Source: an uncultured Mycoplasmatota bacterium (GTDB taxonomy: Bacteria; Bacillota_I; Bacilli_A; RF39; UBA660). From it: a DNA stretch of 64,000 nt. This document shows, in pieces, positions 91-14,176 of the stretch (position 1 is the first letter of the stretch; each line of letters starts with the position of its first letter). The position numbers were made by a program, and so were the translations under genes. The DNA lies in contig CASEIJ010000031.1 in assembly GCA_949288035.1 (NCBI GenBank), positions 13,929 to 77,928 on the forward strand, given 5' to 3'. The notes beneath the pieces are model-generated. The model was not told where the DNA came from, did not search any database, and saw only the letters and a program-made list of their open reading frames with translations.

Positions 91-717
91 CTATGGATTT
101 ATTGATATTAAATCTCCCATTACCAATTGGATAAAATATAGAATAACATTTATATTCTTTTCCATTGATTTTTTTATGAATTCTTTTTTCCGACATTGTG
201 AAACTGATATTTTTTCGTTAAGAAAAACTGTACTAACTTGGTTTTCAAATAAAATGATTACTTTAGGATTTACTATTTCTATCTCTTTCTCTAACAAACT
301 TAAGTATTGTTTATATACTTCGTTTTGAATAGGCCTAGCATCAAGTTGTGTACATTTACCTAAATTCGTGATAAAGATTTTATTTTTTTTCACTTTGTTA
401 TATACTTTTTCAGCAAATTCTTCATCCCATTCACTTGCTTTTTTATTCTTAATTACATGATATATGTCAATATCAAATAGATTCGTTACAACAAATAAGT
501 CCCAAATGTTTTTTGTTCCAATCCATGGGGCTCTAATACCATTCCAAGACGGATTTGAAGCAATATTTTTTGATGTTGGGTTCATAAAAACGAAGCAAAT
601 GTCTGGATTTTTATCACATCCACCAAAGTTAATTGATTTTAATGATTGATTTCCATAAACTTGTTGCATCTTCTCATATTCCTTTTTTAATTCTTCTAAG
701 CACATATCCGCCGCCAA
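91..717 (-). CDS. Uracil-DNA glycosylase superfamily protein (UDG/MUG-like)
   Basis: 208-aa ORF. Motif 'ICFVFMNPTSKN' resembles the MUG/UDG 'VFCGINPG' glycosylase motif. Family membership not verifiable without a search. Confidence 0.4.
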   Translation of the reverse strand: MAADMCLEELKKEYEKMQQVYGNQSLKSINFGGCDKNPDICFVFMNPTSKNIASNPSWNGIRAPWIGTKNIWDLFVVTNLFDIDIYHVIKNKKASEWDEEFAEKVYNKVKKNKIFITNLGKCTQLDARPIQNEVYKQYLSLLEKEIEIVNPKVIILFENQVSTVFLNEKISVSQCRKKEFIKKSMEKNINVILYFIQLVMGDLISINP

Positions 718-897: not shown

Positions 898-1893
898 TTA
901 CTCTGTCAATTTATATTTTTTATTGGGCGATTTTTCATTATTGTCAGTAGTTTCAATTTTCTTATCTTGAAGAAATTTTCTTAAAATTCTTCTGACTGTA
1001 CTGTCAGATAGTTCTGTTTGTTCAATAATATCTTTGGCTCCAATTATAACGTTTTTCTTAATGCATTCTAATACTTTTTGTTCGTTTTCAGAAAGCAATA
1101 ACATAGATTTGTCTTTCATTTCTTTTGAATTATTCATTTCGTCTATTGTATCGTTTATCATTTTTAGCATAAACTCTATAAATTCTGTTGAGTTCCCAGC
1201 ATTATTGCAATTTTGAATAGCAGTATAATATTTTTCTTGATTTTTCTTTATCATACTTTCAATAGGTAAATAAGTAAATGCTTTTTCCCAATGTGAAAGA
1301 ATTGCAGTTTGCCATAATCTGGCTGTTCTTCCATTTCCATCGTGAAATGGGTGTATAAATACAAATTCATAATGGAATATAGAAGATAAAATTAAAGGAT
1401 TTATTTCATCTTTAACCTCATTCATCCAATGAAATAGGTTATCCATTAAACTAGGTACTAATCTATGTGGTGGGCATGTAAAAATACATATATCTCCATC
1501 ATAAACACCTTCGCCATGATTTCTAAATTTACCTGCATCTTTTTCAATTAAAAAAGTTAGAGTTCCGTGTATTTTCTTTAAATCTTCTACAGAATATGGA
1601 TTTACTTTATCAATTTGCTCATAAGCATTATAAGCATTTTTCACTTCTTGAATATCTTTTTGTTCTCCAATTACAGGTTTTCCATTAATTACATCTTCAA
1701 CTTGAAATAATGATAATTGGTTATTTTCTATTGCTAAAGATGAATGTATTGACTTTATTCTTGATTTTCTTCTCAATTCTGGGTATCTATTTAGACTTTC
1801 AAAATAATTTGCTTCTCCAATTTTTTTCATTATATCTGACACATAATTTAACATTTTGTCGGTTATTGTGTATGGTGGGTATTTTACTTCCAT
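898..1893 (-). CDS. Fic family protein (class II, with intramolecular inhibitory motif)
   Basis: Fic active-site motif HPFHDGNGRTARLW. An upstream 'SLAIEN' fits the (S/T)xxxE(G/N) inhibitory helix. Basic C-terminus is HTH-like. Confidence 0.85.
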   Translation of the reverse strand: MEVKYPPYTITDKMLNYVSDIMKKIGEANYFESLNRYPELRRKSRIKSIHSSLAIENNQLSLFQVEDVINGKPVIGEQKDIQEVKNAYNAYEQIDKVNPYSVEDLKKIHGTLTFLIEKDAGKFRNHGEGVYDGDICIFTCPPHRLVPSLMDNLFHWMNEVKDEINPLILSSIFHYEFVFIHPFHDGNGRTARLWQTAILSHWEKAFTYLPIESMIKKNQEKYYTAIQNCNNAGNSTEFIEFMLKMINDTIDEMNNSKEMKDKSMLLLSENEQKVLECIKKNVIIGAKDIIEQTELSDSTVRRILRKFLQDKKIETTDNNEKSPNKKYKLTE

Positions 1894-2252: not shown

Positions 2253-4445
2253 ATGAAACAAGTGATTTTGAAAATCGGGGGAATGAGTTGTAGTGCTTGT
2301 TCTAATGGTTTAGAAAAATATTTAAATAAACAAGATAAAATAGAGAGTGCAACGGTGAATTTAGTACTCGCTCAAGCTAAGATTGTATATGATGATACAC
2401 TATCTATTTCTGATATCGAACAGATGGTAAAAGATTCTGGATTTGAAAGTTTAGGAGTCTATGATCCGAAAAAAGATGACAAAGAACAGAAAATTTCTAA
2501 ATCATTTTATATCTTTTTAGTTCTAGCACTCATTCTTTTATATATTTCTATGGCTCCAATGATTGGAATTCCAACTATAACATATTTGAATATGGCTTCC
2601 TATCCGAAAGTATATGGAATTGCTTTATTATTACTTACTATTCCATTTCTATGTTATGGAAAAGATTTATTTCAAAGTGGTATTAAAAATTTTATGTATC
2701 GTACCCCAAACATGGATACATTGGTAACAATTGGCGTTTTTAGTGGTTTTTTATATAGCTGTTACAGCTTATTACAAGTGTTTTTAGGAAACATGAGTGC
2801 AGTTCATCATCTTTATTTTGAATCATCTGCTATCGTTATTTTCTTTGTCAAAATGGGACGATTATTAGATGAGAAAAGTAAAGCCAAAACAAAAGAGGCG
2901 ATTCAAGAATTAGTTCAAATTACACCGGAAAAAGCAATACTTTTAACAGAACAAGGGGAGAAAGAAGTAACGATTGATGAAGTAAAAGTAGGTGATATCT
3001 TAATTGTTAAACCAGGAATGAAATTAGCTGTTGATGGCATTGTTATAAAAGGTAAATCTCATGTCGATGAATCATTTGTGACAGGAGAATCAAAACCAGT
3101 CACAAAAGAAAAAGGAAGTTCTGTTGTGGCTGGAAGTATGAACTATGATGGATATTTAGAATATGAAGCAAAACGGATTGGGAAAGATTCGACGATATCA
3201 GAAATTGTCAACTTAGTGATCGATGCAACCAATACCAAAGCCCCCATTGCGCGCATTGCTGATACGATTAGTAGTTATTTTGTACCAACTATTATCATGA
3301 TCGCCATAGTAACACTATTTGGTTATTTACTACTTGGCTTTCCACTTTCTGAAGCCGTTATTTCTTTTGTAACTGTGTTGGTTGTCGCTTGTCCATGTGC
3401 TTTAGGCTTGGCAACGCCACTTGCGATTGTGGTTAGTATGGGCACAAGCGCCAAACAAGGAATTTTGATTAAGACGAGTGAAACATTAGAAAATGCTCAC
3501 AAAGTAGATAAGATTGTCTTTGACAAAACAGGAACATTAACTTATGGAAATTTACGTATTTCTCATATGGTTACCAATATGGATGAACAAGAACTTCTTT
3601 CCATGGTGGGAAGCTTAGAAGAAAAATCCACTCATCCGATTTGTAATGCCTTTCTTTTAGAGCTAGAACAGAAAAAGTTAAAGAAAAAAGTAGTAGAAAG
3701 CTTTCAAAATATCGCAGGAATTGGATTATATGGTGTGATTGATGGAAAAGAAATCTATGTTGGAAATCAAAAACTATTTTCTAAATTGAAAATAGAAGAG
3801 AAATATAAACAAGAAAAAGAAGCATGGACGATGGAAGGAAATAGCTTAATATATGTATTTATCAATCATGAAGTGGTTGCTTTATTTGGGGTATCAGATA
3901 TCGTACGTGAGGATGCAAAAGATACCGTTCAGACATTAAAAAACTATGGAAAAGAAGTTGTCATGTTGACTGGAGATGATCAAGTAACAGCTTCGGTGAT
4001 TGCCAAGAAGTTGGGAATTACCCATGTGATTGCAGGTGTTATGCCCAAAGAAAAAACGAAAATGATTCGCACGTGGAAAGAAAAGAACGAAAAAGTAATG
4101 ATGGTAGGAGACGGGATTAATGATGCACCATCTTTAAGTGCCGCAACAATTGGGGTTAGTATTCATAGTGGTACAGATATTGCTATGAATTCTGCAGATG
4201 TGATTTTAATGAGAGATGATTTACAAGGACTGGTAACACTTTTAAAAATCAGTAAGCAAACATATCACAATATCAAACAAAATTTATTTTGGGCATTTTT
4301 CTATAACAGTCTTATGATTCCAATTGCTATTGGTTTTCTAAAACCATTCGGTATTACCATGAATCCTATGTTAGCAGGACTTGCCATGACATTTAGTAGT
4401 TTGACTGTGATTTTAAATGCACTGCGTTTAAAACATATCAAATAG
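2253..4445 (+). CDS. copA: Copper-translocating P-type ATPase
   Basis: N-terminal HMA 'GMSCSACS', TM 'CPC', 'DKTGTLT' phosphorylation motif, 'GDGINDAP' hinge, 730 aa. Confidence 0.85.
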
Positions 4446-4459
4446 AAAGAAGGAATAGA

Positions 4460-5149
4460 ATGATAAAATTAGTATTAGTAAGACATGGACAAAGTATTTG
4501 GAACTTAGAAAATCGCTTTACGGGATGGACAGATGTTCCATTATCAGAGCAAGGTGTAAAAGAAGCCAAAGAAGCAGGAATGATTTTAAAAGAACAAGGA
4601 TTTACATTTGATTTAGCGTTCACTTCTGTTTTAAAAAGAGCTGAAGATACACTAGACTATATTTTAAAAGAAATGAATTTAAGCAATATTGAAATTCGTC
4701 ACAGTTGGCGCTTAAATGAAAGACACTATGGAGCTTTACAAGGACTTAATAAAGATGATACAAAAAAGAAATATGGAGAAGAACAAGTAAAGTTATGGAG
4801 ACGTAGTGCGGATGTAAGGCCACCTGCTTTAACTAAAGAAGATGAACGTTATCCAGGACACGATCCAAAATATAAAGATTTAACAGACGAAGAATTACCA
4901 ACCACAGAGAATTTAATTGATACAATCAAACGTGTTATTATTTATTGGAATACAGATATCAAACAAGAATTGGAACAAGGAAAACAAGTTATCATTGTCG
5001 CTCATGGTAATAGTTTAAGAGGACTCATGAAGTATTTAGATAACATGAGTGATGAAGAAGTGATGAATTTAGAAATTGAAACGGGAAATCCTATTTGTTA
5101 TGAATTAAATGATGATTTAACACCAATTCGTCATTACTATTTAAAATAA
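4460..5149 (+). CDS. gpmA: 2,3-bisphosphoglycerate-dependent phosphoglycerate mutase
   Basis: '[18 protein letters not shown]' catalytic His motif, 229 aa. Followed by hairpin plus T-run. Confidence 0.9.
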
Positions 5150-5176
5150 GACACTTTATATAAAGTGTTTTTTTGT
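5150..5176 (+). terminator. Rho-independent terminator after gpmA
   Basis: 'acactttatataaagtgt' hairpin followed by a T7 run. Confidence 0.6.
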
Positions 5177-5211
5177 AATTATGTTATAATAAAGAAAAGT
5201 GAGGAATCAAG

Positions 5212-8200
5212 ATGGCTAAAAAAATTATGAGAAAAGAAGAGATAGTACGTGCTACTCGTAAATTTACAGATCGTGAACAACCACGACAAGTATTTTTTGA
5301 TAAATATGATGCATTAAAACAACAATTGCCAGATGTCGATGAGATTTATGTCATTACTTATTACGGGGTTGGAGGAATTGGAAAAAGTACACTTTTAAGA
5401 AAATTACAAGAAGAATTACAAGAAAAAGAGAAAAGCCCATATTATTTACACTATGACTTTGAAACAAGTCAAGATATGAAAACATCCTTGCAATTTATGA
5501 AAACAAAGTTAGAAAAAGATTACAAGTTTTCTTTTCACTTATTTGATCTTGCTCTTTATGCTTATTCTAATAAAATAGGGGATACTGTAGAGAAAAAAGA
5601 AGTACAGTCTTATGTAGAACAGAGTAGAACGCTAAGTTTTATCATGGATAGTATTGAAGATATTCCTTTGATTGGAATGGCATCTAAACTTGTGAAATTA
5701 GCAGATAGTGGGATTGCAGTATTAAAAAATATAACAAGTAATTATAAAAAAGAACTTTCTCAAATTGAACAAGATAGTGCTGAAGATATTTATCAAAATT
5801 TACCATATTATTTCTCTTTAGACTTAGAAGAAAATGTGAAGAAACTAAATCAACCACTTGTCATCTTTTTAGATACTTATGAGAAGTTAGTGAATGAAGT
5901 ACAAGATACTGGATATAGTATTTCTAAAGATTTATGGTTACGTGGAGAACGTGGACCGATTTTAAATGTTCCAGGAATTCTTTGGGTGATTGCCGGACGT
6001 GAAAAAATTAAATGGGGAGAAAGTGATAAAGATTGGGAAGATACATTAGATCAACATATCTTAGGAGATTTATCATGGAAAGATACACGTTCTTTTTTAA
6101 ACGAAGCAGGGATATCTGATGAAACACTTTGTAAAGAAATTTATGAATTAACACATGGAACACCTATTTACTTAGATATTTGTGTTAGTACCTATGAGAT
6201 TTTAAGTAGTCAAGGTCGTTCTATTACGATTGATGAATTTGGTAAGAATCCAGATGCTTTGATTGAACGATATATTCGTTATATGGATCATCAAAGTAGT
6301 GAAATGGTGTATTTACTCAGTCAAATTCCTTTATGGAATGATGACATGATTCACGAAGTAGGTCCTAAAATACTACCTGACTTTTCTTATGTTTTATATG
6401 AGAAAATAAAAAAGCTATCTTTTGTTTGTAACTTAGAAACATGGTCTTATATTCATAAAACCGTCAATGATGTTTTTAACGCGAACTGCCCTGAAATCAT
6501 AAGAAAAAAGAGTGTAGATATTTTATATCATTATTACTATGATTTCTTAGTAAATCATTCGCCAGTACATCCGAATTACTCTTATTACCTCGATGGTTTT
6601 TTACAAGTGAGTCTTGGTTATATTACGATGGAGAATGCCGAGGAAGTGTTAAACCATTGGAAAAAAATTCACGATATCTTGGATCATGCTTGTCTATATG
6701 AAAAAGATCATACTTTAATTCAAACGATTTATGAGAAATGGAATGACTCTTTTTCTCAAGTTGAGAATGGCTATCTCTTGAAGTTAATGCATGCATATAC
6801 TTTAAGAGATCGTAATCAAGAATTAGAACAGTTAGAAGAAGTATGGACAATGATCAAAGATAAAGAAATGAGTGATGTAACATTAGATGTAATTCAATCA
6901 CTTCGTGATCTTTATCAACAAGTTCATGTCAACCCTATGATAGCACGAGAAATTATCGATCGTTTAGAAACATCTAACCTCGATTCGGAAACGAAATATT
7001 ATTGGCTAGGTTTTTACTATTATTTGATTCATGATTTAGACTGTTGTAGTGAATGTTTTCAAATTATTTTATATGATAAAGATATTACGATTATCAAAAA
7101 AACACAAATACTTGGTTCCATCTCGATGATGATTCCATTATCCGAATTACGCGGTATACAGGGAAAAATATTGGAATTCGCAATTACTTATTCTGAAGAA
7201 ATTCAAAGTCAGAGAACAAAGTTATCTTTGCCAACAAGATTTCAATTTGATTTAAATATGGCAAGTTTGTTTTCCCATAATTCTTCTACCATCCATCTAG
7301 CACTTGATTATATCAATGATGCTGAAAAAATATACGAAGAAATATCGGATAGTAGTTTATATCATATTACAATGATTATATTAAAAATTGAAATTTTAAA
7401 AGAAATAGAACCGGAAAAAGTAAAAGCATATGCAGAAGAAAAACTACAGGCAATTATCAAAGAAGGAATGCCAGAACAATTAGATGACCAACTATTTGTA
7501 TTAAAACTTTATCATGCGAGTGAAATGACGAAAGAAGAAATTTCTTACGTAAAAGAACTGGCAAAAAAATATCAACATGATTTGGCAAGTTTCTATCAGA
7601 TTGTAAAAATTGCGATAGATGATGAACTCTTTGATATTTCGAATCCTTTGACAACGGAATTATTGGAGAAGGTAAAAAAAGAGGGAAAAGATGGTTTTAA
7701 AATATATGAAGATATCGTCTTAAATCTTGTTCCAATTGCTTATCAAGAAACATATAGAGATGAAATCATTGATACCTTTTATCAAACTTATAAAAAGGAA
7801 TATTTCAATCATCCTGATATACTTGCTCCTGTTCTTTATCGTTTGATGGATATTTATGCACAAGAACCCCTAAAAAAAGAGATTTATATGAAGGAATTAA
7901 TTCAACTTTACCATAGGAATCATCGACCAATGGAATGTGCAGAGGCTAGTATCTTATATGCAAAGTTTATAGGGGGTGCGGATTTAGAAAAAGCAATAGA
8001 ACTTACCACTGCTTCTATAGAAATATATGATACAGTCGACGGATACGATAGACAAAAACAAGAAGCGATGGTGTTACTAGGTGAACTTTATTTGAAAAAG
8101 GGGGAAGTAGAGAAAGCGATTCATGTATTAGATAAAGTGATTTCTAATTCTGATTATCCAGAATTTGGCGTTCAAGCTTTTAGATTAAAAGCAAAGTACA

Positions 8201-8961
8201 CAAAACCATCAGTAGAAACGATTCAATTGTTGCAAACGATGTATGAACAACATCAAAAGGCTTTTGGTAAGGGGAATGAGGAATCTTTAGAAGATCTCTA
8301 TTTATTAGCAAAACATACTTATTTATTAGATCAAAAAGATAAAGCAGTGAATTTGTTTCAAGATTTATTAGAAGATGCTTCTTATATCGATGGAAAAGCA
8401 AGTGAAAAATATTTGACATATTTTATTAAACTTGTCGATTTTCTCTCTGAACAAAAAGATTATAAAAGACAATGTCCACTTAGTAAAGAATTGTGCTTTA
8501 TTCTATTAGAACATGTACCAAATTCGGTTACAACCATCATAGATCAATTAACACAATATGGAGAAGCACTTGCTCATTTAAATGAAAAAGAAAAAGCTTA
8601 TCATATTATAGATATATTAAAACAGTATTTATCGGTACAGCCATCTAAGACAGAAGCAATTATTCTAGGAATGATTTCCATTGCGAATGGAATGGAAGAT
8701 TATGCAAACTGTCTTGATTATAGTAAAGAGTTATGTAATTACTATCGTGATAGTAAAGCACCAGAATCGGATTTTTATGAGGGATTAGATAGAGCTTCTA
8801 TCTTTCAACATTTATTAGGAAAATATGATTCTCATCTTTATGACATCGATAAAATCTTGTATGAATATTATATAAAACAAATGGATTTTGAATCGGCAGA
8901 AAATGTTATGATCCGTTTAGAACGCGATAAAAAATATTTAAAGGAAGAAAATAAAGGATAG
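5212..8961 (+). CDS. STAND-class P-loop NTPase (NB-ARC/NACHT-like) with C-terminal TPR/helical repeat region
   Basis: Walker A 'GVGGIGKSTLL' at residues ~53-63. Walker B-like 'LVIFLDTYE'. Sensor-1-like 'WVIAGRE'. GxP-like 'HGTPIYL'. About 850 aa of TPR-like helical repeats follow. Own promoter (tgttataat, 5183-5191) and own terminator. Confidence 0.7.
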   Translation: MAKKIMRKEEIVRATRKFTDREQPRQVFFDKYDALKQQLPDVDEIYVITYYGVGGIGKSTLLRKLQEELQEKEKSPYYLHYDFETSQDMKTSLQFMKTKLEKDYKFSFHLFDLALYAYSNKIGDTVEKKEVQSYVEQSRTLSFIMDSIEDIPLIGMASKLVKLADSGIAVLKNITSNYKKELSQIEQDSAEDIYQNLPYYFSLDLEENVKKLNQPLVIFLDTYEKLVNEVQDTGYSISKDLWLRGERGPILNVPGILWVIAGREKIKWGESDKDWEDTLDQHILGDLSWKDTRSFLNEAGISDETLCKEIYELTHGTPIYLDICVSTYEILSSQGRSITIDEFGKNPDALIERYIRYMDHQSSEMVYLLSQIPLWNDDMIHEVGPKILPDFSYVLYEKIKKLSFVCNLETWSYIHKTVNDVFNANCPEIIRKKSVDILYHYYYDFLVNHSPVHPNYSYYLDGFLQVSLGYITMENAEEVLNHWKKIHDILDHACLYEKDHTLIQTIYEKWNDSFSQVENGYLLKLMHAYTLRDRNQELEQLEEVWTMIKDKEMSDVTLDVIQSLRDLYQQVHVNPMIAREIIDRLETSNLDSETKYYWLGFYYYLIHDLDCCSECFQIILYDKDITIIKKTQILGSISMMIPLSELRGIQGKILEFAITYSEEIQSQRTKLSLPTRFQFDLNMASLFSHNSSTIHLALDYINDAEKIYEEISDSSLYHITMIILKIEILKEIEPEKVKAYAEEKLQAIIKEGMPEQLDDQLFVLKLYHASEMTKEEISYVKELAKKYQHDLASFYQIVKIAIDDELFDISNPLTTELLEKVKKEGKDGFKIYEDIVLNLVPIAYQETYRDEIIDTFYQTYKKEYFNHPDILAPVLYRLMDIYAQEPLKKEIYMKELIQLYHRNHRPMECAEASILYAKFIGGADLEKAIELTTASIEIYDTVDGYDRQKQEAMVLLGELYLKKGEVEKAIHVLDKVISNSDYPEFGVQAFRLKAKYTKPSVETIQLLQTMYEQHQKAFGKGNEESLEDLYLLAKHTYLLDQKDKAVNLFQDLLEDASYIDGKASEKYLTYFIKLVDFLSEQKDYKRQCPLSKELCFILLEHVPNSVTTIIDQLTQYGEALAHLNEKEKAYHIIDILKQYLSVQPSKTEAIILGMISIANGMEDYANCLDYSKELCNYYRDSKAPESDFYEGLDRASIFQHLLGKYDSHLYDIDKILYEYYIKQMDFESAENVMIRLERDKKYLKEENKG

Positions 8962-8980
8962 TCTTTTCTATCCTTTTTCC
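8956..8980 (+). terminator. Rho-independent terminator after STAND gene
   Basis: 'ggatagtcttttctatcc' hairpin plus 'ttttt'. Confidence 0.6.
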
Positions 8981-9033
8981 GTTGTAAAAACCATTGTTTT
9001 TTGATATGATAAAAAGGTAGAAAGTAGGAACTT

Positions 9034-10266
9034 ATGAGAAAGTATATATGGATCTTTTTTACGATTTTCTGTTTTTTTCCGGCTATTGTAATTGCTAGTG
9101 AAATACCTGAAGTTTCATCGGAAGCAGTTATTCTTTATCAGTTAAATGAAGATAAAGTAATCTATGAGAAAAATAGTGAAGAACAATTAGCACCCGCTAG
9201 TCTTACGAAAGTTATGACAACGTATGTCGCTTTAGAAAAAATCACGGATTTAGATCAAACAGTGACTCTAACAGATGAGATGTTTCAAGGACTTGTTGAG
9301 TCAAATGCCTCGGTTGCTGGTTTTTGTGTTGGAGAGACTGTGACATATCGTGATTTACTATATGGCTCTTTATTTCCTTCAGGAGGAGATGCGACCCAAG
9401 CCTTAGCCATTCTTCTATACGGTAATCAAGAAAACTTTGTTGCTAGGATGAATGAAAAAGCGGAAGAACTTGGTATGAAACAAACTCATTTTGAAAATGC
9501 GACAGGACTACCAGATGAGAATCATTATTCCACAGCTTCTGATATGGCATTACTTTTAAAGGAAGCACTTAAAAATAAAACGTTTTATGAATTATTTACA
9601 ACGGATGAATATACGACAAGTAATGGCAAACATACTTGGATTCCATCTTTTTTAAAAACGGCAAACACGTATGGTGTTTCTGTTGGTCCCATTTTAGGGG
9701 GAAAAACAGGATTTACCAATGAAGCTGGATACTGTTTAGCAAGTATCGCAACTTATGATGACGTCAATTACTTACTAGTTACATTACATGCTCCCACCGA
9801 TGGTAGTAGAGCAGGGGCTGTTATCAATAGTATGCGTATTTATAATTACTTTGGTACCAATTACGGATATCAAACCGTTGTTCAAAAAGATACACCTGTC
9901 TATACCGTAAAGACAAAGAAATATGCCGATAAAGATCAAGTTGCAGTGATACCACATGAAGCTATCTCATATTATTTACCAAATGATTTTCAAAAAGACC
10001 AATTAAAAATCTCTTATCAAGGTATAGAAGAAGCAACTTATGGAACTAAAAAAGGAAGTAAAGCAGGAACGGTTACATATGCTTATCAAGGTGAAACACT
10101 AGGTACAGTACCAGTTTATTTTTCACAAGATATTTCTTTTGATGGTGTGGCTTTTCTTACAATGAACTGGTATTGGATGGTTGGCGGATGTATTTTACTT
10201 GTTGTTATTTTGAAAATCACAAGAAAAAAACGCCGTAAAAAAAGACGTAAGAAACAGCGCAAATAA
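9034..10266 (+). CDS. D-alanyl-D-alanine carboxypeptidase (serine-type, PBP5-like)
   Basis: Signal peptide. 'SLTK' (SxxK), 'SGGD' (SxN-like) and 'KTGFT' (KTG) motifs. C-terminal TM helix plus poly-basic tail 'RKKRRKKRRKKQRK'. Confidence 0.8.
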   Translation: MRKYIWIFFTIFCFFPAIVIASEIPEVSSEAVILYQLNEDKVIYEKNSEEQLAPASLTKVMTTYVALEKITDLDQTVTLTDEMFQGLVESNASVAGFCVGETVTYRDLLYGSLFPSGGDATQALAILLYGNQENFVARMNEKAEELGMKQTHFENATGLPDENHYSTASDMALLLKEALKNKTFYELFTTDEYTTSNGKHTWIPSFLKTANTYGVSVGPILGGKTGFTNEAGYCLASIATYDDVNYLLVTLHAPTDGSRAGAVINSMRIYNYFGTNYGYQTVVQKDTPVYTVKTKKYADKDQVAVIPHEAISYYLPNDFQKDQLKISYQGIEEATYGTKKGSKAGTVTYAYQGETLGTVPVYFSQDISFDGVAFLTMNWYWMVGGCILLVVILKITRKKRRKKRRKKQRK

Positions 10267-10319
10267 TTGTTTGGATATAGAATTTGTGTTATACTAACAT
10301 GGAAAAAGAAGGGATTATT

Positions 10320-10922
10320 ATGAAATATTTAAATCGTATTTTAATTTTTTTATTCGTTGTCATAGATGCTTGGTATGTCTATGATCGATTAAGTCGTGGT
10401 GTTTATAATCGTTTAGAGATTGCTGCAGCTGTGATTCCAGTTTTACTAGGACCATGGTTGATTAAGAAAATCTTACATTATGAAATGTCAGAACCATTAA
10501 AATTTGTCTATTATTTATTTACATTTGCTTGTGTGATTTTAGGAAGTATTTTAAACTTATATAACATTCCAGAAACGATGTGGTTTGATAAAGTAACTCA
10601 TTTTATCTCAGGCTTTTTAACTTCTATCGTCGCTTTAATGTTGATTAAATATGGCAGGGTAACAGTAAAGAGCAAATGGTTTGTTCCAATCTTTATTATT
10701 ATATTTAGTATTGGAATTGCTGGATGTTGGGAATTTTTAGAGTATTTTATGGACATGATAACAGGAGGAGATACACAACATGTCTTAACAACTGGTGTCG
10801 ATGATTCCATGGGTGATATGTTAGTGGCAGCACTTGCCAGTATCATGTTTGCGATATATTATTACTATCAAGTATATTTCGCAAAAAAGAATCACATGGA
10901 AACATTAGTAGAACATTTATAG
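10320..10922 (+). CDS. Multi-pass membrane protein, unknown function
   Basis: About 6 predicted hydrophobic helices. Start chosen at ATG preceded by 'aaagaaggg'. Confidence 0.5.
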   Translation: MKYLNRILIFLFVVIDAWYVYDRLSRGVYNRLEIAAAVIPVLLGPWLIKKILHYEMSEPLKFVYYLFTFACVILGSILNLYNIPETMWFDKVTHFISGFLTSIVALMLIKYGRVTVKSKWFVPIFIIIFSIGIAGCWEFLEYFMDMITGGDTQHVLTTGVDDSMGDMLVAALASIMFAIYYYYQVYFAKKNHMETLVEHL

Positions 10923-10936
10923 AAAAGAGGCAGTAT

Positions 10937-11452
10937 ATGTTACAAGTAAAAAAGAATACCTTTCAAGTACAATATATAGATATGAATTTCAGACAAAGAG
11001 TATATGAAAATGAAAGCATTATTTCTATTATGATGGATATTTCTTTCTATCCTAGAGAATTAGATGGAGAAATTGTTTCAGGAACATTTTCAGTACTAGT
11101 CGATACCAATCAAATTAAAACAATCAAAGATTTAGAAAATAAAACATTTAATCAAGAAGTAAAAGTTTCGGCAGCAATATCTAGAAATGGAAGTTGGGAA
11201 CATTATGATGCTTATGATGGTATCTTAACTTTTATGAATTGCAATCATAATCAGATTGATTTTCATTTAGAAAGTAAGAAAAATGAACTAGAACTAGATG
11301 GTACAGCGACTATGATTAGTCTCTATTCAACCAGTAGTAATGAAGAAACATTAAAGAAATATTTTCAAATGGATGATTTTTATCCAACACCAATTAAGAA
11401 GAAAATACAAAATCGTGAAATTTTAAAATATTATGTAAAAAACGAAGCATAG
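10937..11452 (+). CDS. Hypothetical protein
   Basis: 171-aa ORF, soluble, no recognisable motif. Tight spacing with neighbours. Confidence 0.45.
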   Translation: MLQVKKNTFQVQYIDMNFRQRVYENESIISIMMDISFYPRELDGEIVSGTFSVLVDTNQIKTIKDLENKTFNQEVKVSAAISRNGSWEHYDAYDGILTFMNCNHNQIDFHLESKKNELELDGTATMISLYSTSSNEETLKKYFQMDDFYPTPIKKKIQNREILKYYVKNEA

Positions 11453-11468
11453 AAAAGCAGGTGTAATT

Positions 11469-12095
11469 ATGAGTCAAAGAATGAAGAAAACATTGTTGTT
11501 TGGTTCGATTGGATTGTTTTTATTATTGACTCTTTTCGTAGCACTGAAGTTAACAACACCAATTGATACAACTTTCTCAAAATGGGTGTTCCAACTTCAT
11601 AATCCTGTTTTCACTGCTTTTTTTCGTTTTATTACTGATTTTGGATATATTCAGATTTTACTAATATTATTAGTGATTATACTGATTGTATTTCACAAGT
11701 ATCGATTTGCTTATATTTTACCAATTCATGTCACTATCTCTGTTATTTTTAATATGATTTTAAAAAATATTTTCGCAAGACCTCGTCCTGAGATGATTCG
11801 TTTAATTGATGAAGTAGGTTTTAGTTTCCCATCAGGACATGCGATGGTAACGATGGTAGCTTATGGATATTTAATATATGTTGTACACCATTATATTCAA
11901 CAGAAATGGTTAAGATATAGTCTGATTGCTTTCCTAGTTTTTATTATTGTCTCAGTAGGTCTTTCCCGTATCTATTTAGGTGTTCATTATCTAACCGATG
12001 TATTAGCAGGATATAGTATTTCTCTTTTCTATTTGTTAGTTGTAACAAAAATGAAGATTTTTTCACTAGGTGATCATCATGAAAGTATGGATTGA
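11469..12095 (+). CDS. PAP2 family phosphatase (phosphatidic acid phosphatase type 2)
   Basis: PAP2 motifs 'KNIFARPRP', 'PSGH', 'SRIYLGVHYLTDV'. Confidence 0.85.
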   Translation: MSQRMKKTLLFGSIGLFLLLTLFVALKLTTPIDTTFSKWVFQLHNPVFTAFFRFITDFGYIQILLILLVIILIVFHKYRFAYILPIHVTISVIFNMILKNIFARPRPEMIRLIDEVGFSFPSGHAMVTMVAYGYLIYVVHHYIQQKWLRYSLIAFLVFIIVSVGLSRIYLGVHYLTDVLAGYSISLFYLLVVTKMKIFSLGDHHESMD

Positions 12096-12513
12096 TGGGG
12101 ATGCTTGTCCTGATATTTCTGATATTTTAGATTTATGTCATCATTATCAAACCCCGGTATGTATTGTTTGTGATGATTCTCATGAATTTCAAAATACAGA
12201 AGAACTAAAAATAGTTAGTACTGGATTTCAAAGTGCGGATATGTATCTTTTAAATCATATTGAAAATCATGACTTTGTCATTACAGGAGACTATGGAGTT
12301 GCTACCATTGCTCTAGCAAAGCAATGTACCACCTTACATCCCAATGGAACATTTTATACAAAAGATAATATGGACCAATTGTTATTTCAAAGACATATGT
12401 ATAGTAAAATGAGAAGACAAAATAAAAAGACACCACATAGTAAAAAACGCAGTTCTGATGTTCGTTTACAATTTTTAAATCAAATTGAATCTGTTTTAAA
12501 GATGAGTAGGTGA
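12079..12513 (+). CDS. YaiI/YqxD family protein (UPF0178)
   Basis: 'KVWIDGDACPD' and 'DFVITGDYGVA' match the UPF0178 YaiI family. Confidence 0.75.
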   Translation: MKVWIDGDACPDISDILDLCHHYQTPVCIVCDDSHEFQNTEELKIVSTGFQSADMYLLNHIENHDFVITGDYGVATIALAKQCTTLHPNGTFYTKDNMDQLLFQRHMYSKMRRQNKKTPHSKKRSSDVRLQFLNQIESVLKMSR

Positions 12514-12517
12514 TACG

Positions 12518-14176
12518 ATGAAAACAGATATTGAAATTACAGAAGCATATCAAGGAATTCCTATTTCCACATTAGCTCAAAAATTAGGTATAGAACCTTA
12601 CTTTGAACCCTATGGAAAATGGAAAGGGAAAATTGATTTATCGCTTTATGATCAGTTGCAAGAAAAAGAAGAGGGGAAATTAATTTTAGTGACGAGTACT
12701 TCTCCAACACCGATGGGAGAAGGAAAAACAACGATGGTAATCGGCTTACATGATGCTCTTTGTAAGTTAGGGTATCATAGTTTAGCAACCCTAAGAGAAC
12801 CTTCTCTAGGACCAGTTTTTGGTATTAAAGGAGGAGCTACAGGGGGAGGTTATGCCCAAGTATATCCGATGGATGAGATTAATCTTCATTTTACAGGAGA
12901 TATGCATGCGATAACGAGTGCGAATAATCTTCTATCAGCAGCAATTGATAATCATATTTATCAAGGAAATGAATTACACATTGACGAAAATAAAATTGTT
13001 CATACTCGTTGTCTTGATATCAATGATCGTAATTTAAGAGAGATTGAAGTAGGGTGTGGGAAACAAGGCATTCACCATCGTGAACAATTTGTGATTACTG
13101 TTGCAACAGAACTCATGGCAATCTTATGTCTTTCTGATTCTCTTGCTGATTTAAAGAGAAGAATTGGAAATATGTTAATTGCCTATGATGTAGAGAATCA
13201 ACCGATTTATGTATCTGACTTACATGTAGAAGATGCAATGACGATTTTATTAAAAGATGCTTTAAAACCAAATCTTGTACAAACCTTGGAAGGAAATCCA
13301 GTCCTTATTCATGGTGGTCCATTTGCGAATATCGCCCATGGTTGTAATTCTTTATTAGCGACCAAACTGGCTTTAAAACTATCCGATTATGTGGTGACAG
13401 AAGCTGGTTTTGGCAGTGATTTAGGAGCAGAAAAGTTCTTAGATATCAAATGCCCAAAAGGAAATTTAAAACCACATGTGATTGTTTTAAATATGACAAT
13501 TCGCAGTATGAAGTATCATGGTGGTGTTTCTAAAGATCAGTTGGCACAAGAAAATGTAAAAGCGTTAGAAAAGGGAATGACCAATTTAAAAGCACATTTA
13601 GAAAATATGAGAAAGTATACAAGTCATGTTGTCGTATGTATCAATCAATTTCCGACAGATAGCCATAAAGAACTTTCTTTTGTTAAGAAAGCATTAGAGA
13701 CATTACATGTTCCTTATGCATGTTCTACTGCCTATCAAGATGGAGGTAAGGGATCTGTTGAACTTGCGAAAACAGTCATTCAATTGTGTCAACAAGAACC
13801 TGATTTTCACCCGCTATATGAGATGAATTTATCTCTTACCAAAAAAATAGAAACCATTGCGACAGAAATCTATCACGCAAAGAAAGTATGTTATCAAGAT
13901 GGTGTGTTAGAAAAATTAAAAGAATATGAAAATATGGGGGCAACATCACAACCTGTTTGTATTGCAAAAACACAATACTCATTTAGTGATGATGCGAAAA
14001 AACTAGGTGATCCACGTGATTTTGTAGTAGAAGTAAAAGATGTAAAATGGAATCGTGGAGCAGAATTTGTAGTAGTATATATGGGAAACATTATGACAAT
14101 GCCAGGACTATCTAAAAAACCTGCTATGACATCTATGCATATTACAAATAATGGACATATTACGGGGTTGTTTTAG
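12518..14176 (+). CDS. fhs: Formate--tetrahydrofolate ligase
   Basis: 'PTPMGEGKTT' nucleotide-binding motif, 552 aa, colinear with Fhs. Confidence 0.9.
   Translation: MKTDIEITEAYQGIPISTLAQKLGIEPYFEPYGKWKGKIDLSLYDQLQEKEEGKLILVTSTSPTPMGEGKTTMVIGLHDALCKLGYHSLATLREPSLGPVFGIKGGATGGGYAQVYPMDEINLHFTGDMHAITSANNLLSAAIDNHIYQGNELHIDENKIVHTRCLDINDRNLREIEVGCGKQGIHHREQFVITVATELMAILCLSDSLADLKRRIGNMLIAYDVENQPIYVSDLHVEDAMTILLKDALKPNLVQTLEGNPVLIHGGPFANIAHGCNSLLATKLALKLSDYVVTEAGFGSDLGAEKFLDIKCPKGNLKPHVIVLNMTIRSMKYHGGVSKDQLAQENVKALEKGMTNLKAHLENMRKYTSHVVVCINQFPTDSHKELSFVKKALETLHVPYACSTAYQDGGKGSVELAKTVIQLCQQEPDFHPLYEMNLSLTKKIETIATEIYHAKKVCYQDGVLEKLKEYENMGATSQPVCIAKTQYSFSDDAKKLGDPRDFVVEVKDVKWNRGAEFVVVYMGNIMTMPGLSKKPAMTSMHITNNGHITGLF

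Follow-up and report, generated by a model that had tools for sequence, protein, structure and literature searches.

The 64,000-nucleotide stretch analysed here (in the following called the window) comes from an uncultured Mycoplasmatota bacterium (assembly GCA_949288035.1, contig CASEIJ010000031.1, positions 13,929 to 77,928 of the forward strand). At window positions 5212..8961 (+) it contains an intact open reading frame (ORF) with an ATG start, encoding a 1249-amino-acid protein that combines a STAND-type NTPase with a long sensor resembling tetratricopeptide repeats (TPR). We consider it very probable that this STAND gene is a functional accessory gene of a clade not described so far. A role in defence or conflict is a more open matter, with the evidence in our view evenly balanced; the most likely reading is a conflict sensor with its output provided in trans.

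The assignment as a STAND-type NTPase with helical-repeat sensor, already made in a first-pass annotation of the window, is supported by the AlphaFold2 (AF2) model, by fold matches and by invariant motifs. Residues 1-427 (5212..6492 (+)) form the NOD core, for which the model (residues 1-460, pLDDT 81) predicts an AAA+-like P-loop nucleotide-binding domain (NBD), a helical domain with the GxP motif and a winged-helix domain (WHD). Motif conservation was scored in an alignment of 35 family members. Invariant in 35/35 are G52, G55, G57 and K58 of the P-loop or Walker A motif GVGGIGKSTLL (residues 52-62, 5365..5397 (+)), D221, T222, Y223 and E224 of the Walker B motif LVIFLDTYE (residues 216-224, 5857..5883 (+)), and W258, G262, R263 and E264 of the sensor-1 strand WVIAGRE (residues 258-264, 5983..6003 (+)); G316 and P318 of the GxP motif HGTPIYL in the helical domain (residues 315-321, 6154..6174 (+)) are likewise invariant. 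All four motifs had been quoted in the first-pass annotation; they are present in the ORF and, given their invariant positions, are not chance matches. A further, MHD-like motif, SYIHKTVNDVF (residues 412-422, 6445..6477 (+)), lies in the winged-helix domain. Its His415 is kept in 31/35 members and sits just past the beta-hairpin wing (residues 405-414, with strands 405-408 and 411-414), which is followed by a helix in the model. We take His415 to be the counterpart of the MHD/LHD histidine known from NB-ARC proteins and, as in Apaf-1 and NB-ARC proteins, presumably to contact the beta-phosphate of ADP. Between beta2 and the Walker B strand the model places a helical insertion of ~120 amino acids (residues ~89-210, 5476..5841 (+)), which comprises seven helices with a pLDDT of 53-69 at residues 130-170 and higher values elsewhere. 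By analogy with PH0952 (PMC6468293), this may be an expanded ISM-like region.

Searches with the NOD did not point to one known family. ORC/Cdc6, MalT, PH0952, plant NLRs and Avs3/5 were about equally near in fold; MalT was the best STAND match, Avs3 was found with a Foldseek E value of 1.5e-4, and further matches were NRC2, RPP1, ZAR1, CED-4 and DARK. Pfam NB-ARC (PF00931) reached 22.4 bits with the full protein and 23.9 bits with the N-terminal fragment (cutoff 23.5), in an alignment spanning only profile positions 5-52 of 248 (~48 residues near the P-loop), and weak NB-ARC matches were seen in 25/30 family members. Pfam NACHT stayed below threshold (18.0 bits, cutoff 26.7; weak matches in 13/30 members), and the other sub- or near-threshold Pfam matches (ATPase_2, AAA_22, NPHP3_N, KAP, nSTAND6) cover the P-loop region only. 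The module had been labelled NB-ARC/NACHT-type, but neither type can be assigned, the Pfam matches being weak and confined to the P-loop and the fold matches mixed. A PDB search with the NTPase alone and with an NTPase-only family profile returned nothing significant (best match DnaI, E 0.004), and the same search with a full-length homologue profile was swamped by the TPRs of kinesin light chains.

NCBIfam and PADLOC scans gave no meaningful match for the STAND protein; the best PADLOC matches were VakA (E 0.011) and mad8 (E 0.016), and neither an Avs nor a bNACHT model was found. This bears on the idea that the hidden Markov models have overlooked a divergent member of an antiviral STAND family already known (Avs1-21 or bNACHT). 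Avs3 and Avs5 are among the fold matches and the overall layout, an NTPase plus a large TPR-like sensor, is the same; however, PADLOC matches at E ~0.01 to unrelated models, the lack of the effector domain that characterised Avs require, and Avs fold scores no better than those of ORC, MalT and plant NLRs all speak against it. Membership in Avs or bNACHT, which had been brought up in the first-pass annotation, is thus not borne out by PADLOC, and we regard it as quite improbable.

The remainder of the protein, residues 428-1249 (6493..8958 (+)), consists of an arm and a TPR-like alpha-solenoid with ~41 helices in roughly 20 hairpins. The AF2 model of residues 441-1249 (pLDDT 89) contains 41 helices and zero beta structure, so that the ~850 amino acids of TPR-like repeats expected from the sequence became an all-helical, TPR-like solenoid of ~810 amino acids. 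Pfam TPR matches were sub-threshold only (residues 936-1054), and the nearest solenoid folds are the peptide- or protein-binding TPRs of Rap, PlcR, LGN and KLC. In the two full-length relatives outside the species (clusters P0003 and P0004), the NOD is 67-69% identical to that of the window protein, the solenoid only 26-28%. On these identities the sensor is evolving much faster than the switch. A homology search with the sensor alone, looking for fusions to other modules, returned only two clusters of the same species.

No N-terminal effector and no helix-turn-helix (HTH) domain were found in the STAND protein with Pfam, NCBIfam and the AF2 models, and the C-terminus consists of TPR helices to the end. 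The earlier observation that both an N-terminal effector and a C-terminal DNA-binding domain are missing was therefore borne out by Pfam and the models. In STANDs, one or more effector domains are generally located at an end of the protein (PMC6468293). The view that an effector-less protein is atypical thus holds for STANDs generally but not within the protein's own family, where this architecture is invariant. The full-length search found two clusters from the same species (P0001, 96% identity, 159 member sequences; P0002, 91%) and the two relatives P0003 and P0004 at 41-44% identity; in more than 290 further proteins, the similarity is confined to the N-terminal 35-40% (40-47% identity). 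Relatives with a name are labelled "tetratricopeptide repeat protein" and come from Clostridia, Fibrobacter and Synergistaceae. An exhaustive phmmer search with the NOD against 1.84 billion representatives yielded 568 clusters at E<=1e-30, 1,269 at <=1e-10 and 1,976 at <=1e-3, and the family originates from anaerobes of gut, rumen and digesters. The absence of an effector is a family trait, since 120/120 and 150/150 of the best matches listed have the NTPase at their N-terminus, starting at residue 1 or close to it, and the longest members (1,347-1,887 amino acids) only add further TPRs. Thus, the window gene is not a degenerate or odd copy. The sole non-TPR addition found, and the only domain resembling an output, is a C-terminal FtsK-gamma winged helix of the DNA-binding kind, detected by a Pfam scan in P0013 (residues 940-999); precomputed Pfam domains list it for P0015 and P0018 as well.

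Several loci carry tandem pairs of paralogues that are 42-58% identical (L096, L101, L103-105 and L116), for instance at 7959-13580 of L101 and 5108-10730 of L103. In the pairs of L101 and L103-105, a conserved substitution gives the upstream copy an acidic P-loop position (G[IM][DE]GIGKS), and tandem pairs with this substitution resemble the sensor/helper pairs of NLRs. In one further locus (L122, 69-4330) a DDE transposase of an insertion sequence (IS) element splits the member, in the order NTPase fragment, IS element and TPR remainder. IMG/VR viral contigs and GenBank phages contained zero relatives at the sensitivity used, and the plasmid search returned only relatives at 21-25% identity.

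The accessory status of the gene was studied with gpmA as an anchor, for which 80 loci were fetched from species-representative genomes. In the window, the STAND gene lies between copA (P-type copper ATPase, 2253-4445) plus gpmA (4460-5149; NCBIfam PRK14115, E 1.4e-112) on one side and an S11 DD-carboxypeptidase gene (dac, 9034-10266; Peptidase_S11, E 1.8e-52, plus a PBP5_C domain) on the other. A second genome of the same species (UMGS2016, L001) carries the gene as well. The sister species (ERR321581-bin.27, L002) has an identical gene order, copA-gpmA-dac-DUF2238-orf171-PAP2-FTHFS, with amino acid identities to the window of 95% for gpmA, 89% for copA, 89% for FTHFS and 79% for dac; its gap between gpmA and dac measures only ~106 bp and is without a STAND gene. 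The empty gap at identical synteny does not fit a core-gene pattern and supports that the STAND gene is accessory; the first-pass annotation had proposed to inspect this gap in relatives. In relatives more distant than L002, the copA-gpmA-dac synteny is lost altogether.

In the junction alignment, the dac promoter and ribosome-binding site together with the terminator now located 3' of the STAND gene correspond to the gpmA terminator region of L002, and the extra DNA consists of a new terminator, a promoter and the ORF. The hairpin at the STAND stop codon (8953-8978) aligns with L002 10717-10740, the gpmA terminator of the sister species; therefore, the inserted segment appears to meet the ancestral terminator precisely at its 5' arm. 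A search at the insertion for direct or inverted repeats on its flanks, for tRNA genes and for mobility genes found none. The same-species cluster P0002 occupies the same site, while P0003, P0004, P0006 and others are located in unrelated genomic places.

Six independent samples from this species cluster carry the ORF in intact form, and its overall dN/dS is 0.13-0.19. Against three conspecific alleles, dN/dS is 0.06-0.07 for the NOD and 0.21-0.32 for the solenoid, compared with 0.08-0.10 for the neighbours gpmA and copA and 0.05-0.19 for FTHFS and dac. The gene is thus under purifying selection and, as far as the sequence tells, functional. The synonymous divergence changes along the region compared (window 2253-14176): against L081 and L001, dS is 0.2-0.5 across copA, gpmA and the first ~500 STAND codons and drops to ~0.03-0.09 from about codon 600 through dac and FTHFS, and the pattern is reversed against L084. 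This mosaic along gene and flanks indicates that homologous recombination has taken place, with some of its breakpoints within the STAND gene. If the gene were a mere remnant, decaying or selfish and without present function, the orphan-like sensor sequence and the missing output domain would be accounted for. Such a remnant is barely conceivable, however, in view of the intact 3.75-kb ORF in six independent samples, a NOD dN/dS of 0.06 that is as low as that of gpmA and copA, the invariance of all catalytic motifs, the predicted own promoter, ribosome-binding site and terminator, and the retention of the gene in a probably small genome.

A second gene of the defence type was found in the vicinity. 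At 898-1893 (-), 3.3 kb from the STAND gene, lies a Fic/DOC gene with a winged helix, which the anti-phage model SoFic of PADLOC matches over nearly its full length (E 2e-51). The window shares this gene with L001 and L090, and it is absent from L002 (where the UDG-superfamily gene abuts copA), L081 and L084, and is by this distribution a second variable, defence-type insertion near the STAND gene. SoFic is a validated abortive-infection system that stands alone (PMC12249575). One could imagine a two-gene system with the STAND protein as sensor and the Fic protein as AMPylating effector: both genes lie within 3.3 kb, both are missing from L002, and the STAND protein has no effector of its own. 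Yet L081 and L084 carry the STAND gene without the Fic gene, so that the two do not form one system and the proposal is largely refuted; in addition, the conserved copA and gpmA lie between the two genes, which are on opposite strands, the known SoFic works alone, and no Fic gene recurs beside other family members. We regard it as highly improbable. The UDG-superfamily gene itself (91-717 (-)) is kept in L001, L090 and L002 but not in L081, which has a GntR-ABC transporter cluster ahead of copA instead. The DNA upstream of copA thus varies between strains.

Elsewhere in the family, several members are located close to defence genes. In L089, a member has a WYL regulator directly upstream and lies with Cas12a, a GIY-YIG gene and an integrase; a type I restriction-modification (R-M) system follows directly downstream in L103/L114; L130 has a DRT-type RmuC 10 bp upstream of the member plus a complete type II R-M system; a C5-MTase is near the member in L082, and RelB/PIN_3 and PIN_3 modules are found at L092 and L098. 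In L089 (4938-11199), the member overlaps two unknown ORFs of 102 and 452 amino acids, followed by the GIY-YIG nuclease, near Cas12a and an integrase/DUF927 element; this locus could be a multi-gene variant of the system.

Possible partner genes were considered individually. PIN_3 flanks the STAND gene in two independent loci, L092 and L098, the two proteins being ~30% identical. The PIN gene of L098 stops ~100 bp short of the position where the member probably starts; as a case for an effector this is too weak. The ORFs of ~100 amino acids downstream of members in L089, L123 and L102 are mutually unrelated, and the sigma-70 genes that follow P0003 and P0004 have the appearance of normal sporulation sigma loci rather than of partners, with SpoIIGA adjacent in L085. 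Two distant relatives on plasmids, both at ~21% identity, have a candidate effector gene directly upstream on the same strand. On the Priestia plasmid NZ_CP026738 (L132, 4520-8853) this is a HEPN-domain gene at a distance of 33 bp, with a restriction endonuclease nearby; on the Streptomyces plasmid NZ_CP108475 (L133, 3463-8346) it is a zeta-toxin family gene immediately upstream. These genes suggest a precedent for effectors in trans in the wider clade.

Defence-proximal loci amount to ~4-5 of ~26-32 independent ones (window counted), which corresponds to a binomial P of ~1e-3 to 5e-5 against the published null of 0.0153 (benchmark P<=1e-4; PMC13581612), though the statistic is post hoc, the sample is small, and PADLOC and Pfam calls are set against a null derived from DefenseFinder. 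The above-background proximity is suggestive. A role in conflict would also fit the fast-diverging sensor, the tandem paralogue pairs and the one member split by an IS element. We rate the chances of a conflict or defence role as roughly even on the grounds of accessory status, sensor divergence, paralogue arrays, cross-phylum patchiness and defence proximity. The context thus suggests the defence function proposed in the first-pass annotation without establishing it.

Besides the limits of the proximity statistic, a number of observations weigh against a defence role. When all flanking ORFs of 45 loci were clustered, no conserved partner gene from which the output could come was found beyond redundant samplings of one locus, and at roughly 80-85% of the loci the neighbours are housekeeping genes only (among them ETF, NrdDG, POR, MinE, ABC transporters and two-component systems). 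The STAND protein matches none of the PADLOC defence models. The family lacks the effector by which STAND clades are called defensive (PMC13581612), and effector deletion abolished the activity of every characterised Avs in the same work. The FtsK-gamma winged-helix subgroup hints at DNA-directed rather than immune outputs. There is no sign of net positive selection in the sensor, as no 100-codon window nears a dN/dS of 1. The GC content of the gene is not distinct from its flanks, and with one syntenic sister species the difference at this locus could be a gain or a loss.

The main rival is a non-immune signalling or scaffolding STAND. Here, the solenoid would sense a peptide, protein or metabolite of the cell itself, in the manner of MalT or the RNPP receptors, and the oligomer would regulate a cellular process by protein-protein interaction, with no fused DNA-binding domain. 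Most family loci are embedded among housekeeping genes, the folds nearest to that of the sensor are those of RapH, RapI and PlcR, which are peptide receptors of Firmicutes, MalT is the best STAND match to the NOD, some members end in the FtsK-gamma winged HTH, purifying selection is strong, relatives are absent from phages and nearly absent from plasmids in the collections searched, and about two thirds of STAND clades are not defence-associated (PMC13581612). On the other hand, the sister species differ in having or lacking the gene although the locus is the same in other respects, relatives with NODs 67-69% identical have sensors that are no longer recognisable, tandem paralogues and a patchy cross-phylum distribution occur, proximity to defence genes is above background, and neither an adjacent pro-peptide gene nor a regulated operon is conserved. 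We regard such a signalling function as a serious possibility, if not a probable one.

For the conflict sensor, which we prefer, a mechanism can be outlined by analogy with MalT, PH0952, Apaf-1 and Avs. The protein would consist of switch and sensor only, an N-terminal NOD with an expanded helical insert and a long, fast-diverging TPR-like solenoid. At rest, the closed NOD monomer would hold ADP and be autoinhibited by His415 of the WHD and by the arm and TPRs. Binding of a protein or peptide ligand, possibly from a phage or mobile element, to the lineage-specific solenoid would then open the NOD, ADP would be exchanged for ATP and the protein would oligomerise. Since none of the family members has a nuclease, NADase, protease or HTH fused to it, the output would have to be provided in trans by a partner that the oligomer recruits, be it unlinked or encoded by the host; alternatively, the ligand would simply be sequestered. 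Going further, the family might represent a new sensor-only STAND class without a dedicated effector, providing immunity through oligomers that form around an invader protein and sequester it or through co-option of an abundant host factor as effector, or else an NTP-gated peptide receptor of gut anaerobes in which an RNPP-like TPR sensor sits on a STAND switch; we put this forward tentatively and think it rather unlikely. For the co-option of a host factor, EF-Tu in Avs7 offers a comparison.

The expression signals around the gene are predicted from sequence and fold. A terminator-like hairpin with U-tract lies directly 3' of the gpmA stop codon (5148..5174 (+)); its stem at 5148-5171 has a folding energy of -7.9 kcal/mol (z -3.05) and leads into the U-tract, and the element is part of the DNA that is extra relative to L002 and absent from the L002 gap. 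It is followed by a putative extended -10 promoter element, TGTTATAAT (5182..5190 (+)), and by a Shine-Dalgarno sequence, GAGG (5201..5204 (+)), 7 nucleotides upstream of the ATG, both found by direct reading. At the other end, the TAG stop codon is located inside the stem of a second terminator-like hairpin followed by a U5 run (8953..8978 (+)), with -10.3 kcal/mol (z -4.97) for 8953-8976 in addition to the L002 alignment described above. The consensus scanner called the downstream hairpin on the minus strand only and left the upstream hairpin and the promoter, which is without a good -35 element, uncalled since its thresholds were not reached. With hairpins on both sides, an extended -10 element and a ribosome-binding site read from the sequence, the flanks are as first annotated, and a monocistronic unit between gpmA and the DD-carboxypeptidase gene is supported. 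Further downstream, an ORF of 171 amino acids without a Pfam family (10937-11452 (+)) is found at the same position in L002 with 87% amino acid identity.

Bacterial STAND and NLR-like immunity is currently understood as a sensor, a switch and a fused effector. The family described here comprises hundreds of clusters with a tightly conserved switch, a hypervariable sensor and no effector, and lies outside current family libraries. If it is defensive, STAND signalling could be delivered entirely in trans or by sequestration; if not, it represents a STAND clade of considerable size without an immune function. The architecture is of a known kind and many clades of STANDs have yet to be characterised, but the family-wide lack of an output domain is a real mechanistic gap. 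Furthermore, the window species and its sister species L002 provide a clean natural presence/absence pair for studying gene acquisition in reduced-genome gut Bacilli.

Among known systems, the RNPP receptors (Rap, PlcR, NprR) share only the generic TPR fold with the window protein: they are ~300-400 amino acids long, lack an NTPase, use an HTH or a three-helix bundle at the N-terminus as output and have a pro-peptide gene next to their own, whereas the window protein has an N-terminal NTPase and no conserved small ORF alongside. Like the NB-ARC/AP-ATPase NLRs (Apaf-1, CED-4, plant NLRs), it has a GxP motif and an MHD-like histidine after the WHD wing and matches in fold, but its Walker B motif is hhhhDTYE instead of hhhhDD and CARD, TIR or CC domains are lacking. 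The gene is most similar to the TPR-sensor STANDs of the PH0952/MalT type (PDB 6MFV, 8BOB; PMC6468293) and to Avs. A defining feature of each is missing, however. The DNA-binding effector is N-terminal and of the ArsR type in PH0952 and C-terminal and of the LuxR type in MalT, while this protein and its family have none; there is also no similarity at the sequence level, and the helical insert in the NBD is much larger in the window protein. The N-terminal effectors of Avs1-21 (PMC13581612), which include nucleases, SIR2, proteases and others, are required for activity, but the window protein has none and no PADLOC match, and the enrichment of its family in defence contexts is only suggestive. 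With Avs1-21 it shares the large single-gene STAND design, the long TPR-like sensor that diverges much faster than the NTPase, the accessory distribution and, at some loci, a defence neighbourhood. The description that suits the gene best is that of an effector-less variant, new to description, within the STAND NTPase-TPR kind, and its family may well be one of the 589 STAND clades of PMC13581612.

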